From an uncultured delta proteobacterium (GTDB taxonomy: Bacteria > Myxococcota_A > Polyangia > Polyangiales > Polyangiaceae): 64,000 nucleotides of DNA. Positions 9,377-15,120 of the stretch are shown piece after piece; position 1 is the first letter of the stretch; every line of letters begins with the position of its first letter. The notes beneath the pieces are model-generated. The model did not search any database. It was not told where the DNA came from and saw only the letters and a program-made list of their open reading frames with translations. Both the position numbers and the translations under genes were made by a program. The stretch lies in NCBI GenBank assembly GCA_963716725.1, contig CAVQUB010000003.1:237978-301977 (forward strand), in the 5' to 3' direction.

Positions 9377-10456
9377 TCAATTCGATCGCGTGCACATCGA
9401 CACGACGAGCTCGCTGCTGAACGGGCCAGACGGCCCCTGGCCCTTCAGCCGCGCGAAGAGCAGCGGTGGAGGCTCGGGGAAGGCTGCATCCATCGGCTGC
9501 TGCGCGGGGCAGGATTCTCCCAGCAGGTCCTGGTCGCTCGTCGCGTCGACGCTGGTCGAGTGCTCACCCGTAGCCGGGATCGTGGTCTCGATCAGGTGGA
9601 GGGACCAACCGCTGGTGTCGAAGGGCGCGATGGGAGCGGAGCTGCCGAATGAATACTGAAACGGCACGATACGGATGTCGCCCGAGACCGATCCCAGCCC
9701 GGGTCCGGCCGCATGCGGGACGTGACCGTGGAGCGTCGTCATCGTGAAGGGACCCGCCGGTTGCACCATCGCGTTGCCAAAGGCCGACGGATGGGTGAGC
9801 CCGCTGTGGCATGTCAGCACCACGCGCGGCGGCCAGGCGCTTCCGAATTCGACGCCTGAGCCGCACTTGGCCTCGAAGCTGCCGCCGTCTGCCTTGCCCT
9901 TCACGATGATTCCGTAGGGCTCGATGCGATCGAGCTCGTCTTTGCAGCGAGTGCCGATCTCCGGCGCGGCGTCGGCGCTCGCCCACAGCTTGTAGTCCCA
10001 GGACTTCTGGGCGCCGCCGCTGGCGGTGAGGGTCTGCGCGACGCTCTTGTCCGGGCGCACCAGCTCGATGCTCTCGGGCATGAGGCAGGTGTCATTGCCC
10101 GAACTCAGGCGACCCCTCACCTGCAGGTGCGCCGGCTTGCCCGGCATCTCGAGCAACGCGAGGCTGACATCGTCGCAGAGCACCGTAACCTTGGCGCTGC
10201 CGCTCGTGGGCGTGCAATCGGTCGCGCCGCCCGTGCCGCCGAGACCCGCGCTGCCGCCGACGCCCGCACCACCGGCCACGCCACCGCTACCGCCTGCGCC
10301 GGTGCCAGCATTGCCCGTTCCGCCGGTCCCGGCGCCGGCCCCGCTGCCGCCAGCGCCGCCAGCGCCGCCCGATGCGCCGCCCGACGATCCCGAGCTGCTG
10401 CACGCAACGCCCAGGCAACACACCAAGAGTAAAGCGACCGACTGGGCTCGGAACAT
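9377..10456 (-). CDS. Gly-rich-linker lipoprotein, unknown function
   Basis: MFRAQSVALLLVCCLGVAC lipobox followed by Gly-rich linker and Cys-containing beta domain. Confidence 0.8.
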   Translation of the reverse strand: MFRAQSVALLLVCCLGVACSSSGSSGGASGGAGGAGGSGAGAGTGGTGNAGTGAGGSGGVAGGAGVGGSAGLGGTGGATDCTPTSGSAKVTVLCDDVSLALLEMPGKPAHLQVRGRLSSGNDTCLMPESIELVRPDKSVAQTLTASGGAQKSWDYKLWASADAAPEIGTRCKDELDRIEPYGIIVKGKADGGSFEAKCGSGVEFGSAWPPRVVLTCHSGLTHPSAFGNAMVQPAGPFTMTTLHGHVPHAAGPGLGSVSGDIRIVPFQYSFGSSAPIAPFDTSGWSLHLIETTIPATGEHSTSVDATSDQDLLGESCPAQQPMDAAFPEPPPLLFARLKGQGPSGPFSSELVVSMCTRSN

Positions 10457-10572
10457 GATGGGTGCGCGTCTGATGCCCCGGCGGCTCGCCGCGTTCAAGC
10501 CAACAGGTTGGCGGCTGCGCTCAAGCAAGTCGGCGGAATCACGGGGGAACGACCCGAGGAATTTTTTTGGAA

Positions 10573-10589
10573 TAGGCCCAGCCCCTGCG
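10573..10589 (+). promoter_or_regulatory. Putative sigma54 -24/-12 promoter for the sRNA candidate
   Basis: taGGcccagcccctGCg: GG(10575-76)-N10-GC(10587-88), preceded by a T-tract; imperfect versus TGGCAC-N5-TTGC. Confidence 0.4.
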
Positions 10590-10599
10590 CGGTTGACCC

Positions 10600-10806
10600 A
10601 AGTGAACCTGCAAGGAGGTGTCGAAGAGTCAAGAGAACAACGGCCCTGCGTGAACCTACGAGAGCGAGCCATTGCGCGCCCTCCTCCCCGAGCCCGCCCA
10701 AACGCAAAGAAGGCGCGGCCGCCACTCTCGAAGTGGTGAGGCTCCTGTCGTCCACGCACGGCTGCTCTCAAAAACCCCTGGTGCGCTGCACCGGGGGTTT
10801 TTTTTT
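10600..10806 (+). ncRNA. Candidate structured small RNA (~200 nt)
   Basis: Intergenic between two minus-strand genes; long-range stem gagagcgagcc(10660-70)/ggctgctctc(10760-69), internal hairpins, plus-strand terminator with 9 T. Confidence 0.55.
10770..10806 (+). terminator. Rho-independent terminator, probably bidirectional
   Basis: aaaaa-cccctggtgc-gct-gcaccggggg-ttttttttt. Confidence 0.9.
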
Positions 10807-10828
10807 GCGTGCCTCGGGGCGAGCGAGC

Positions 10829-13369
10829 TCACTTCCAGTCGACGAGCAGCCGACGGAGCCGGCCTTCGCTGCCAGCTCGGTCCGCGATCAACACCTCACG
10901 ACCCAACAGCGCCGGCGAGATCGTGGGCGGCACCGCCGAGCTGAGGCTCATCAGTCGCACTGCAGCACTTGCCTTGCCGCCCGCCCACTCGGACGCCCAG
11001 ACCCCCGCGGCTCCGTCTCTCACGGCGTTCATCAAGACCCGACAAGCGTCGTCTCGACACTCCAGCGCGAGCGCATTCGGAGCGCTGCCGCTGAGCGGGA
11101 TCGTCAGTGACTTGCCGAGGGGACGGGCATCGGCACCGAGCTCGACGACGCGGACCTCCGCATCGCCGGACGCTCCGCTCGGGGAAACGCTCTCCTCGAT
11201 CCACGCCAGCAGCGCGCCCTTGCCAACCAAGGCGAGGGCCGGCGAGCGCGAGTGCCGGGGCGTCTTCTCGACCACTTGCTCGCTGCCGACGAGGGATGCA
11301 TCCGACCCTTTCAGGGCAGCGACGTAGATGTCGCCAACACCGGGCTGGTCCTTGTCGCGCGCGTCGGACCAGGCGATGAGGGCGTCTGGTCCCCGCGCGA
11401 CCAGGGCGACCTCTGCCGCGGATCCGGCCGCGCTGGTGATGCGCTTGTCCGGGCCGGCGCTCAAGAGCATGCGGTTGATCCGCGCCGCGTACACCTCGGC
11501 ATCGCCGCTCCGCTCGTCGATCCAGGCCAGCAACCAGCCGTCGCCGACGCCGGTTGCCGCCACGTCGCTCTTCTCCCCGGGGGCGCGGGTCAGCATGCGT
11601 TGCCGGAGCTTCTTGCCCTTGTCGTCCACGACCGTGACAAACACCTGCGGCACCTTGTAGTCCATCGCGGTCCATGCGAGCAGCGCGTCGGGCTGCCCGG
11701 CGGTGCTGGCCGCGAGCGCAACACCTCCCAGAGAGCGTGCACGGATCGAAATCGTCTCTGCGGCGAGCGGCGCGCCAGACCCAGGGAGCGCTCGCACTTG
11801 GAGCAACGCTCGCGTTGGATCCATCCGCCCGTCAGGCGCAGCTTTGGTGGGCCGCACCCAGGGCGTGCTGGGATCGAAGTAGGTGACCCACGCCGCCAGG
11901 GACGTCGGACCCACCTTGGTCGACGAGAGGTCGGCGAGCGGATCCGTCTTTGCGATCACTTCGATGGCGGCAGCGCGGGGCGGCGGCGGGCGCCCCGCTC
12001 GGCGCGCGGCCGGCACGAAGCCTCCCCGCTTGCCCTCGGCGCGGATCGCCCACACCGGGGTGGGGTTGGTGGCTTGCGCGCCCAGCACGCGACATGGCTT
12101 CATCTCGCAGGAAAGCCCCCACACGAGATCCGGTGCCTCGCCCCGGAGCGAGGCGATCTTCAGCGGCTCCGACGCGACCACGCGGAGGCTCGCGTCGAGC
12201 TCGACGTAGGTGGGCAAGAGCGGCGCGTCCGGGCACTCCTGCTCTTTTCGACACACCTTCGCCACGGTGAGCGCGGTGAGCCCCGCCGGAAGCGCAGCCA
12301 GCTCCGGGATCGATCCGTCCCGCACGCCGTGGTCCAAGGTGGCTCGGGCTTCGCCCAGCTTTCCGTCGCTCGAGATGGGTGCGAGGGAGATCTTGCGACC
12401 GGTCGCCGGACGCTCGAGCAGGCTCTCCCAGGCGAGGTAGGCGCTGCCTCCCTTCTCGTGGGGTGGGACGAGACGGATCAGCGCCTGCTCGCCGATACTG
12501 TCTTCGAGGACCGTGGGCGACGCCGCGAGCTTGCCCCCGGAGTTGATCGACGCGAACCAGAGCTTCTCGTGATCGGACCAAGCCAGGAGCAGCCCTCGTT
12601 CTATCCTCACCATGTCGAGTTCGCGCACCTTCGGTGCTGCGGACGTGACTTCGACCCGCGAGGATGGCGCCCCGTGGTCGTCGAGGATCTCGAGGTGGAC
12701 TCGGCCGGTTTCGCCGACCGCGGCCACGGCGGCCCCGGCGCCGAACCTCACGGCCTGCCAGGCGCGAGCATTCTTGACGAAGGGCTCGGGCTGCATGCGC
12801 TCTTGTCCCACCAGCGCGGCAAAGAGATCGGCGCCGCCCGGATTCTTCACGCCCCAGAGCGCGAGCGTGCCGCTCGACGTGGCGACCAGATCGATCCAGA
12901 CGACGTCGCCAACCACTTCCGTCAGACTGACCGGTAAGCCCTTCGGTCGCCCACGCAGATCGAGCTCGAGTGAGTCGAGGACGGTGCGCCCGCCGTCCTT
13001 TCGGGTCGAGAGCAGCGCGAAACCGGCGGGCTCTGCCTCGACCACGGCCACGCCGACTTCACCCGGCGCGTTCGAGAGGCGCAGCGGCGCGCCGCGAGGC
13101 ATCCCGATATCGTCGAAGCCGACGCCGAACCAGGCCCGGCCTTTCTCCGCGGCCTGCGCCCAGACCGCGACACCCCCGGACGAGGTCGTCGCGACGTAGG
13201 GGCCAACTGTGCCGGCGGGCACGCTGGCGAAGCGCACGCTGTCGAGGGCGTCTTTGCCCGCGGACGCGCCGGCGCTCGGAGCCACGGGCCCAGGTCGCGC
13301 CGGCTTGGCGACCTCGCTCTGCCCCGCACAAGCGCCGACGGCGAGAGCCAACATGAAGATGCAACGCAT
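10829..13369 (-). CDS. Large lipoprotein, probable two beta-propeller-like repeat domains
   Basis: MRCIFMLALAVGAC lipobox; recurring xLxAWxD/E...dVyvarL repeats; 846 aa. Confidence 0.8.
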   Translation of the reverse strand: MRCIFMLALAVGACAGQSEVAKPARPGPVAPSAGASAGKDALDSVRFASVPAGTVGPYVATTSSGGVAVWAQAAEKGRAWFGVGFDDIGMPRGAPLRLSNAPGEVGVAVVEAEPAGFALLSTRKDGGRTVLDSLELDLRGRPKGLPVSLTEVVGDVVWIDLVATSSGTLALWGVKNPGGADLFAALVGQERMQPEPFVKNARAWQAVRFGAGAAVAAVGETGRVHLEILDDHGAPSSRVEVTSAAPKVRELDMVRIERGLLLAWSDHEKLWFASINSGGKLAASPTVLEDSIGEQALIRLVPPHEKGGSAYLAWESLLERPATGRKISLAPISSDGKLGEARATLDHGVRDGSIPELAALPAGLTALTVAKVCRKEQECPDAPLLPTYVELDASLRVVASEPLKIASLRGEAPDLVWGLSCEMKPCRVLGAQATNPTPVWAIRAEGKRGGFVPAARRAGRPPPPRAAAIEVIAKTDPLADLSSTKVGPTSLAAWVTYFDPSTPWVRPTKAAPDGRMDPTRALLQVRALPGSGAPLAAETISIRARSLGGVALAASTAGQPDALLAWTAMDYKVPQVFVTVVDDKGKKLRQRMLTRAPGEKSDVAATGVGDGWLLAWIDERSGDAEVYAARINRMLLSAGPDKRITSAAGSAAEVALVARGPDALIAWSDARDKDQPGVGDIYVAALKGSDASLVGSEQVVEKTPRHSRSPALALVGKGALLAWIEESVSPSGASGDAEVRVVELGADARPLGKSLTIPLSGSAPNALALECRDDACRVLMNAVRDGAAGVWASEWAGGKASAAVRLMSLSSAVPPTISPALLGREVLIADRAGSEGRLRRLLVDWK

Positions 13370-13462: not shown

Positions 13463-15120
13463 GTGACACTTGCGCAGCGCCTGCTCGTCGCGACTCTGCT
13501 GCTCACCGTGGTCACCACGGTGAGCCTCGGATTCGGCGTGCGCGAAGCTTGGCGGCGCACGGAAGAAGAGCGATTCCGTGAGCAGGGCGCGGCGGCCTTC
13601 GCGCGCCTCGAGAGACAGCTGGGCACCGCGGTTCGGGACCTGCCTGAGCTCGTCGAGCCTCTGTGCAAGCACGATCCGATGGTGGACAGCGCGCTGGTGG
13701 GCCTCAAGGCGCGCGATCTCGACTCGCGCCGGTTGTCGCTCAGCCTGCGCGTGCCCGAGCTGATGAAGGCCCTGCGCCTCGACGAGCTAGTGCTGGTGAC
13801 CAGCGAGGGCGAGATCCTCGGCGCGGGGCACGCCGACGGGTTGGTGGGCAAGCGCGACAAGAAGCTGGCTCAGCGCATGCAGAGCGGTGTCGGTTCGGCC
13901 CGCGTGCGCACCTCCGATCCCCCGCTGGCCATCGAAGCCGGGTGTTTGCTCCGCGATCGCGAGCACGAACGGCTGTGGGTCGGCCTGTTCGCCGCGCGTC
14001 ATCTGGATCCGATGCTGCAGGCGACGGCGGAATCTCACGGGGTGCGCCTCTCGCTCTCGAGACCCGCAGGCGGGCAAGACATGGTGACGGCCGTCAACGT
14101 GGCCGAGCTCGGGGGCATGACGCTGTTTGCGAGTCAGTCACGCGTGCCGCTCGCGCGGGCGCTGAAGGCTCTCGACTCCGCCATTGTCGTGATCGGGGAA
14201 GCTCCTTCGGTGCCGCGCTGCTGATTGCGCTCATGCTCTCCCGGGGCCTGGCGCGCCCCATCGTCAAGATGGCCGAGCAGGCCCGGGCGGTGATCGGGGG
14301 CGAGCCCAAACCGGTGAGGGGCAAGGGCGGCAAGGAGTTGGTCGAGCTGGCCAACGTGTTCAATCAAGCCATCGCGGACCTGACCCAACTTCGGAAGCGG
14401 CTGGCGGCCACGGAGCGCATCGCCGCACGCCGGGAGATTGCCCGGCGCGTGGCCCACGAGATCAAGAATCCGCTCGCGCCCATTCGAGCCGCCGTCGAGA
14501 CCTTGCGCCGTCTGCGTGCGCGGAACGATCCAGCCTTCGACGAGTACTTCGACGAAGCGACCCGGACCGTGCTCGACGAAGTGACCCGTATCAACAACAT
14601 CGTGTCGGAGTTCACCCGCTTCGCGCGCTTGCCCCCACCGAACCCGTCACCCATCGAACTGGCAGACGTGATTCGAAAGGTCGTGAACCTGCACGCGAGC
14701 AGCGGCGCCGACATCGAGCTCTCGGTCTCGCCCGTTGTCGTGGTGAACGCCGACGGCGACCAAATGGTGCAGGTGCTCACCAACCTGATCCAGAACGCCA
14801 TCGACGCGGCCCAGGCGTCGAAGAGCCCCCGAGTCACGGTGACGCTCGCCCCGGAGGGAGCGGACAAGATCCGTCTCTCGGTGCGCGACAACGGCCCGGG
14901 TGTGTCTGCGGAGCTGCGCGGTCGTCTGTTCGAGCCCTACGTCACGACAAAGCCGGAGGGCACGGGCCTCGGCCTCGCCATCGTGCACCGCATCGTGCTG
15001 GAGCACGGCGGCGAGATCGTCTACGCGGATGCCGCGGGTGGCGGCGCCGAATTCACGTTGGTGCTGCCTGTGGCGGGGCCGACTTTGCTGACCGAGGCTC
15101 CGGCCCCTTCTTCGGTCTGA
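13463..15120 (+). CDS. Membrane sensor histidine kinase (HAMP-HisKA-HATPase), split by a frameshift at ~14197
   Basis: ORF 13463..14224 gives TM plus periplasmic domain; second frame gives TM2, HAMP, VAHEIKNPL, NLIQNA, DNGPG, GTGLGL. One extra G in gggg (14195-98) restores the frame. Confidence 0.9.

Follow-up and report, generated by a model that had tools for sequence, protein, structure and literature searches.

The window analyzed here, a 64,000-nt stretch of DNA from an uncultured member of the Polyangiaceae, contains a gap between two minus-strand genes that runs from 10456, the start of a gene for a 359-aa protein, to 10829, the stop of a gene for an 846-aa protein. Within this gap lies what is almost certainly a real non-coding RNA: a stand-alone plus-strand gene of ~205 nt at ~10600-10806. 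The locus comprises:

9377..10456, minus strand: divergent lipoprotein-like gene of 359 aa, unlinked to the RNA (match in 0/5 of the relatives' 16-kb loci)
10569..10595, plus strand: predicted ECF (SigH/SigR-type) promoter, with -35 GGAATAG at 10569-75 and -10 GTTG at 10592-95 (37/37 members of the RNA family)
10600..10806, plus strand: predicted ncRNA of ~205 nt (conservation; RNA contigs at 10614-10775; 5' end placed from promoter spacing)
10603..10624, plus strand: weak 5' hairpin with an orphan Shine-Dalgarno (SD) sequence, AAGGAGGUG (10612-10620), and no start codon behind it (AGGAGG in 36/37 members)
10633..10769, plus strand: long irregular rod with a multi-way junction at its end, its structure conserved and its sequence variable (predicted from fold and compensatory changes)
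10680..10707, plus strand: C-rich, largely open apical strand CCUCCUCCCCGAGCCCGCCCAA with the conserved core (mostly unpaired in the centroid structure)
10720..10738, plus strand: side hairpin CGCCACU/AGUGGUG at the junction (3/7 pairs with double-sided changes)
10770..10806, plus strand: intrinsic terminator with a 9-U tail (15 pairs at 10770-10802)
10829..13369, minus strand: convergent lipoprotein-like gene of 846 aa, the usual neighbor (adjoins the RNA in 31/37 members)

Neither flanking gene matches a Pfam or NCBIfam family. Their common orientation was read correctly by an initial annotation of this DNA, and the letters it cited are all found where it placed them: GG at 10575-76 and GC at 10587-88, the SD-like AAGGAGGTG at 10612-20, gtgaacct at 10602 and 10650, the pairs cgcgcc/ggcgcg and gccact/agtggt, the stretch ctcctcccc, and a 9-T tail on the plus strand. 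Its central proposal, that the plus strand encodes an sRNA missing from the annotation which is structured, contains a C-rich single strand and ends in a terminator, is supported by conservation, by RNA contigs and by compensatory changes; the gtgaacct repeat has its second copy at that place in 0/6 other members of the genus.

All five relatives compared carry a different upstream gene and keep the convergent 846-aa gene. Since the 359-aa gene has no match in any of the five 16-kb loci, the RNA is not the leader of that gene. In the relatives compared, the 846-aa gene stands head-to-head with the kinase gene and a chemoreceptor gene. In the window, the sensor histidine kinase (13463-15120) is split in two, with one base missing near 14200; the extra base is present in 5/5 relatives, where the genes checked read ~550 aa, and the split reflects either an assembly error or a recent pseudogene.

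Five RNA sequencing runs, from two studies, match part of 10300-11100. Each of the four runs mapped to 9700-11700 (4/4) yielded a single contig, 151-154 nt long and with 2-3 differences; every contig falls inside 10614-10775, and the variant positions are predicted to be unpaired in 3/3 cases (p>=0.95). The only other cover of 9700-11700 is a single 40-nt partial match in one run, which leaves the flanking genes otherwise uncovered; we do not take this absence as proof that they are silent. Because metatranscriptome contigs show no strand, ends or level, and such libraries can hold DNA, the contigs count as support rather than proof: they are signs of expression in nature for the RNA family.

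The segment 10601-10807 folds at -87.1 kcal/mol (z -3.24, 0/200 shuffles). When the terminator is left out, z is -1.2 in the source genome, with a family median of -1.6 and 19/36 sequences below -1.5 (36 of 44 sequences entered this comparison; eight with mis-cut ends, or in which the rod itself is the terminator, were omitted). In the best fold, 10633-55 pairs with 10753-69, and GAGCC at 10666-70 with GGCUC at 10740-44. The long stem gagagcgagcc/ggctgctctc of the initial annotation can form, but the resulting structure is less stable than the best fold by 8.6 kcal/mol (-78.5 versus -87.1). Covariation within genus g1 affects 11/46 pairs on both sides, and seven of these do not belong to the terminator (4.6 pairs on average in shuffles; 0/500 shuffles); the slid controls are biased here because the pair structure was taken from the source genome. 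A second clade has 10/55 pairs changed on both sides. In the terminator, 100% of cells are paired and 4/11 pairs are compensatory. Its U tail lies on the strand of the RNA in 7/7 same-genus genomes, and the opposite A-run shortens in relatives. Despite little sequence identity, the genera have a predicted anatomy in common: a weak 5' hairpin that carries the SD, a linker rich in A and C, the rod, the junction, which repeatedly exposes a C-rich strand next to a hairpin, and the terminator. The compensatory changes support a conserved RNA structure in the family.

Distribution in the Polyangiaceae

BLAST finds the full element in 5/6 same-genus genomes at 70-85% identity, and the fragment in the sixth proved to be full length. 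Scores of 182-209 bits were obtained for three loci in MAGs labeled Polyangiaceae or Myxococcales bacterium (L126, L133, L145), and a covariance model added two further genera. The family totals 37 Polyangiaceae genomes from 10 genera, a set that includes relatives and is thus not one of independent observations; in 31 the RNA lies beside the 846-aa gene, and in six, all of genus g170, at another locus. It is single-copy in the source genome.

Two pattern searches covered 383 family genomes, of which one flagged as unpublished (G691) enters only this denominator. SD plus core matched in 33/383 genomes, versus ~13 in a reversed control counted by eye; 19 loci were read, and 15 genomes and one metagenome locus were accepted, the rest resembling coding sequence. 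Promoter plus SD matched in 129/383 genomes, versus ~30 in a control also counted by eye. Examination of 60 of these 171 matches, chosen by eye, yielded 20 new members and six paralogue-like RNAs, the remainder being mostly ATG-bearing mRNA starts or chance matches.

To avoid circularity, we also searched with the neighboring gene alone, which is found in 123/131 Polyangiaceae genomes, and read the downstream DNA in 70 loci. The RNA stands beside the gene in 14 of these loci, and 56/70 have no such element. Among the top 30, the promoter is present in 13, and all 13 also have AGGAGG and CCCGAGCC, so that promoter-bearing loci carry SD and core in 13/13 cases; the promoter is present in 0 of the other 17. 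Among the 40 more distant loci, one (G571) has the promoter and the terminator; its SD is weaker and the core is absent. The 846-aa gene is the usual neighbor, and its membership of the RNA's system is at most putative. In one genome (G556, locus L340), a tandem heptamer repeat, CACTGAG, and an N gap lie right behind the homologue of this gene, at the position that the RNA takes in other genera.

A quick tree of the 846-aa protein places carriers across a deep part of the family, with six changes, two of them forced by well-supported branches. On this tree, the RNA is probably an old element with losses or moves. Among 216 genomes of the class other than the Polyangiaceae and the source genome, 10 matched the three-part pattern, and all look like mRNA starts or chance; viral contigs gave 0 matches. 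A GTDB-wide search for the exact core pattern returned mostly chance hits among the matches listed, with 3 of 118 loci true, and in three Pxr-bearing Myxococcales genomes none of eight promoter-plus-SD matches was common between genomes by eye.

Against Rfam, the RNA gives six weak matches, all below gathering score and driven by the terminator or the C-rich motif, with none to Pxr, 6S or a riboswitch; 20 other member and paralogue loci give one weak match and none at gathering score. The family thus has no counterpart at gathering score in Rfam, the catalogue that this comparison covers. Literature searches by topic, without the sequence, found no description of this RNA and no sRNA described from the Polyangiaceae, in a coverage that excludes most subscription journals.

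The six paralogue-like RNAs (L274, L276-L279, L282) come from five genomes of genus g332. They have the same promoter, orphan SD, rod and terminator, a different core (of ACUCCGAUAG type) and other neighbors; 12/43 pairs are compensatory, and none has an Rfam match. Three further loci, L285 (G553), L328 (G216) and L306 (G493), have GGAAT-N18-GTT followed by an SD without a start codon, in A-rich or terminator-ended form, and are possibly further ncRNAs of the same regulon.

Promoter and candidate sigma factor

The promoter motif was missed by the initial annotation: GGAAT (10569-73), exactly 18 bases of variable sequence, and GTT (10592-94), an arrangement present in 37/37 members, partly by design of the searches. 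The sigma54 promoter proposed in its place finds no support. Its GG-N10-GC element is no more frequent than chance, with 11 occurrences per kb on contig C5 of the source genome, and is kept in register in 4/37 members, the conserved motif being instead of SigH/SigR type. A sigma54-type, TGGCA-N6-TGC-like motif is found near 0/37 member promoters; the four Pxr loci that score over the Rfam cut-off do have one.

GGAAT-N18-GTT is the consensus for Corynebacterium sigma-H in the part of PMC10012870 consulted. The sigma factor of the source genome that concerns us here has as its best family TIGR02947 (SigH_actino), at 194 bits and thus below the cut-off of 252, and its gene is directly followed by one for an RsrA-like anti-sigma factor (checked in the source genome only). 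Just upstream of the SigH-like sigma gene lies GGAATA-N17-GTT, in the source genome and in 4/4 other Polyangiaceae genomes (5/5); two more cases were met by chance. In one Myxococcales genome that has Pxr, the motif occurs only in a looser form and at a greater distance upstream. ECF sigma factors commonly transcribe their own genes, and this, together with the occurrence of the same motif before the sigma gene, makes it likely that the SigH-like sigma reads the RNA promoter. On this match we strongly infer the sigma factor: very probably, the predicted promoter and the SigH-like sigma drive the RNA. The promoter thereby suggested for a myxobacterial SigH-like sigma, GGAATA-N17-GTT, makes its regulon searchable. 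In the source genome, the phaR-like, SigH-like sigma and RsrA-like anti-sigma genes stand in a row (L230, contig C8:152253-154372), the sigma gene at 153101-153748, and the sigma promoter, which overlaps the phaR-like stop codon, is conserved in 5/5 Polyangiaceae genomes.

The promoter motif is hardly enriched before genes of the source genome, with 22 occurrences versus 8-27 for other spacers. The 18 of these 22 downstream genes compared with Pfam include an HtrA-like protease, a ScdA/hemerythrin protein and an OmpA-domain protein, and no thioredoxin and no chaperone of the DnaK/GroE/ClpB type. The system resembles the SigH/SigR regulon of Actinobacteria in its GGAAT-N18-GTT promoter and in a sigma factor that is nearest SigH_actino and followed by an RsrA-like anti-sigma, but differs in that the sigma scores below the family cut-off and that no thiol-stress genes were found behind the motif among those 18 genes of the source genome; the comparison concerns the control of the RNA, not the RNA itself. 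We infer the kind of inducing stress from the sigma family only.

The orphan Shine-Dalgarno sequence and the C-rich core

AGGAGG is found in 36/37 members, in 35 of them 6-18 nt from the predicted 5' end. The exception, G571, has AGGAG only, with a GTG behind it. An ATG or GTG 3-10 nt behind AGGAGG occurs in 0/36 members. In the source genome, the SD pairs with the tail of its own 16S rRNA at -15.1 kcal/mol, a value equaled by 0.36% of predicted genes (with crude gene starts). The sequence runs on into TG in 22/36 members (six of 10 genera) and into TGA in 9/36 (four of 10 genera), versus 6.3% and 1.8%, respectively, of 2846 genomic AGGAGG; these letters were not demanded by the searches, and members that are kin are not independent. 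The extension tracks the 16S tail and is unneeded for CsrA binding or for an internal duplex with the CCUCC of the same RNA. In the source genome, the predicted fold pairs the GGU half of the SD, and in genera g3, g332 and g334 the SD lies in a loop. We favor the view that this SD is read by 16S rRNA, a likely though not secure assignment. It is unusual for a non-coding RNA to have a conserved and very strong SD.

Pairing of the SD with the anti-SD within the same molecule was considered and rejected: it costs 14.4 kcal/mol in the source genome and has near-zero probability in most full-length members, and genus g60 lacks CCUCC.

The open C-rich strand, CCUCCCGAGCC..CCC, is among the conserved parts of the RNA and is closed by CGCGCC/GGCGCG (10675-80 with 10712-17). 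CCGAGCC is exact in 31/37 members, present as a one-letter variant in three and absent in three; G600 carries it twice. CCUCCUCCC is exact in the source genome and most g1 members; other genera have a shortened form or none. Before GAGCC, the C-run is two to seven letters long, and neither g60 member has the anti-SD CCUCC, so that the strand fits a fixed seed register poorly.

A target scan covered 6751 crudely predicted 5' regions of one whole genome. In its top SD-anchored candidate, a VOC-family gene, the GGCUCGGG part is kept in 0/10 homologous leaders. Seed-plus-ATG matches in 32 member genomes revealed no gene common across genera by eye among the 150 of 347 listed, and complementarity of the core to 16S, 23S, tmRNA or 6S is no better than in 15 random windows. 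The 6S gene (contig C32, 47.6 bits) and the tmRNA gene lie elsewhere in the source genome. As no conserved target was found, readings in which the RNA is a 30S decoy or binds a protein retain part of the probability.

Relation to known RNAs and possible functions

The RNA is not a member of the Pxr, cuckoo, 6S or Csr families. Among myxobacterial sRNAs, Pxr alone has had its function worked out in the literature examined, and the present family is a second conserved one beside it, with a predicted controlling sigma factor. Both are stand-alone sRNAs of myxobacteria, each with an alternative-sigma promoter to itself, a single-stranded stretch rich in C and a terminator. Pxr is 109 nt long, sigma54-dependent and adjacent to PxrK/PxrR, whereas this RNA is ~205 nt long, of predicted ECF type and without those neighbors; the SD-like letters form a stem arm in Pxr and are exposed or weakly paired here. 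The three stem-loops of Pxr, with the SL1 loop UUCCCCCC and a length of ~110 nt, are likewise not found in this RNA.

Cuckoo RNAs (RSs0680/CcsR, Rfam ar14) of Alphaproteobacteria offer a second comparison, with an anti-SD CCUCCUCCC in an open loop, exact in the source genome. In the part of PMC4615179 consulted, they have two to four adjacent hairpins, each with CCUCCUCCC, no multiloop, and stress-sigma control. Our RNA differs from them in presenting a single motif, at the apex of a long rod that includes a multiloop, and in having CCGAGCC as the family invariant and an additional 5' SD; ar14 matches it weakly, at 18.4 bits versus a cut-off of 58.8. With the Firmicutes RNAs RoxS, FsrA and RsaE on one side and RosA and RsaI on the other, it shares C-rich open and G-rich regions in a structured RNA of ~200 nt, but there is no Rfam match, the phylum is another and so is the promoter class. 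C-rich open regions do the work in cuckoo RNAs (PMC4615179) and in RoxS and FsrA, and RosA and RsaI are G-rich sponges (PMC8216469). 6S RNA (RF00013) is similar in its ~200 nt and its long rod with a large open region; in contrast to it, our RNA has no match to the model, an apical open region, a 5' leader and a separate terminator.

The closest parallel for the orphan SD is STAB-SD of the Bacillus thuringiensis cry3A mRNA, at which a bound 30S subunit does not initiate and RNase J1 is blocked (PMC4113751). As in STAB-SD, a strong SD near the predicted 5' end would start no translation, and an RNase J gene, scoring over the cut-off, is present in the source genome. STAB-SDs are described from mRNA leaders of Gram-positive bacteria, whereas this is an ncRNA of a myxobacterium, where stabilization is suggested by analogy.

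Our preferred explanation, which we hold tentatively and at slightly less than even confidence, is an sRNA of the SigH-like regulon that would pair through its C-rich strand and whose orphan SD would hold a parked 30S subunit that protects it from RNase J. A SigH/SigR-like ECF sigma held by the RsrA-like anti-sigma would be freed by stress and transcribe the RNA from GGAAT-N18-GTT. The rod would hold the C-rich strand open at its tip, and this strand would most likely pair with G-rich, SD-containing translation starts of mRNAs and repress them, on the model of Pxr, the cuckoo RNAs and RoxS/RsaE, making the RNA the putative repressing arm of the sigma response. Binding of Pxr near SD regions is described in the consulted part of a TRIC-seq preprint (bioRxiv 10.1101/2025.09.11.675593). 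The SD, ~12 nt from the 5' end and followed by no ORF, would most likely bind the 16S tail of a 30S subunit, and the parked subunit would keep RNase J off the 5' end, in the manner of STAB-SD on Bacillus mRNA. For the pairing component taken alone, that the RNA is a base-pairing regulator, we put the chances at even. The orphan SD would mean either that ribosome-based 5' protection extends from mRNA leaders to sRNAs or that an RNA captures 30S subunits.

The capture of subunits could itself be the function, which we consider unlikely but the strongest of the competitors. The extended SD would bind small subunits without initiation, damping or re-routing translation under stress, and the rod and C-rich strand would serve as scaffold or docking site for a partner. 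In one form of this idea, to which we give the same low credence, a stress-sigma-induced ncRNA would act as a translation brake, its orphan extended SD holding 30S and its rod presenting CCGAGCC to a partner that times release; if true, the paralogue-like group of g332 would make such RNAs a small class. The rank of the SD in the top 0.36% of the genome, its extension toward the 16S tail in four to six genera and the 0/36 members with ATG or GTG behind it are consistent with such a role, as are the retention of the SD in 6/6 paralogue-like RNAs with another core (the search pattern had required it) and the assembly of the RNA, and not of the flanking genes, in four metatranscriptomes. However, with one SD per RNA, titration is at most one-to-one and would demand a very large number of copies; part of the SD is taken up in a weak hairpin, and one member has only AGGAG; and the conserved C-rich core is left unexplained.

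Somewhat less likely still is an RNA that sequesters or scaffolds a protein, through CCGAGCC in its open C-rich context or through a GGA loop for CsrA. CCGAGCC stays conserved while the C-run around it changes length, and is doubled in G600; many members have a GGA in the loop of a hairpin; and CsrA-like and Hfq-like genes are present in the source genome, above Pfam and below NCBIfam cut-offs. Csr/Rsm sponges carry many GGA motifs in loops, but this RNA has one in the source genome and one to four across the 37 members, unlike CsrB/RsmZ; moreover, the GGUGA extension is unneeded for CsrA, and no partner gene is linked. The Hfq-like gene is a 124-aa ORF (L422:1447-1821, contig C27); M. xanthus is reported to be without Hfq.

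A sponge that captures C-rich anti-SD sRNAs with its exposed G-rich SD, as RosA does with RoxS and FsrA, is improbable. It has a precedent, including RsaI with both G-rich and C-rich regions (PMC8216469, in the part consulted), and the SD does lie in a loop in g3, g332 and g334. But the SD extension follows the 16S tail, no candidate partner sRNA is known here, and the Pxr model matched 0/151 genomes of the phylum, source genome included, in a search whose controls were silent as well.

We give even less weight to a coding role, in which a small peptide would be translated from a non-standard start codon behind the SD; the 11-codon ORF in the initial annotation would be one instance. A promoter followed by an SD does resemble an mRNA start, true mRNAs with promoter, SD and ATG exist in the family, and 17/36 members have TTG (one) or a near-cognate codon (16, scattered) 3-10 nt behind the SD, as G571 has GTG. 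Yet the other 19/36, the source genome included, have no such codon; where one occurs there is no common frame, the codon, spacing and length (2-60 codons) differ, and indels shift frames between close relatives. The GTG of the 11-codon ORF falls inside the SD and reads GTA in G004, and neither its frame nor its start is conserved.

Kinship with Pxr under a sigma54 promoter is already largely refuted and keeps only a very slight probability. The resemblance named by the initial annotation has a basis in the letters: Cystobacter pxr-paralogue primers begin with a similar AAGTGA..AAGGAGGT (PMC5568312), and an open C-rich region and a terminator are found in either RNA. But in Pxr those letters form one arm of a stem and are paired, and their AAGTGA part is unconserved across the present family. 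The RF01812 model (threshold 80 bits), which finds Pxr over the cut-off in 4/41 Myxococcales genomes, has no match at E<=5 in 701 nt around the RNA and none at E<=0.1 in 20 member and paralogue loci. All 28 local alignments of Pxr sequences from Myxococcales genomes with seven members fall within the shuffle range (P 0.21-1.0), and the pattern of the pxr primers occurs in 1/401 genomes of the phylum, in apparent coding sequence. None of the 37 members has a TGGCA-N6-TGC-like motif near its promoter. Pxr genes lie downstream of pxrK/pxrR, but the best PxrR-like match of the source genome is on another contig (C2), and the RNA is about twice as long as Pxr with a different fold.

That the element is only the terminator of the convergent 846-aa gene, with incidental flanking conservation, is scarcely credible: the hairpin does have a 5-U tail on the minus strand in the source genome and the fold signal drops without it, but promoter, SD and core are all retained in 6/6 g170 members, where the RNA lies at another locus, the gene lacks such an element in 56/70 loci, and the RNA contigs fall on the element rather than on the gene. 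The terminator may also end the 846-aa gene.

Apart from this family, four loci in three Myxococcales genomes (L150, L151, L156, L157) hold divergent Pxr-like RNAs that score below the Rfam cut-off, two of them in tandem in G446 with sigma54-type promoters, and these may widen the known range of Pxr.
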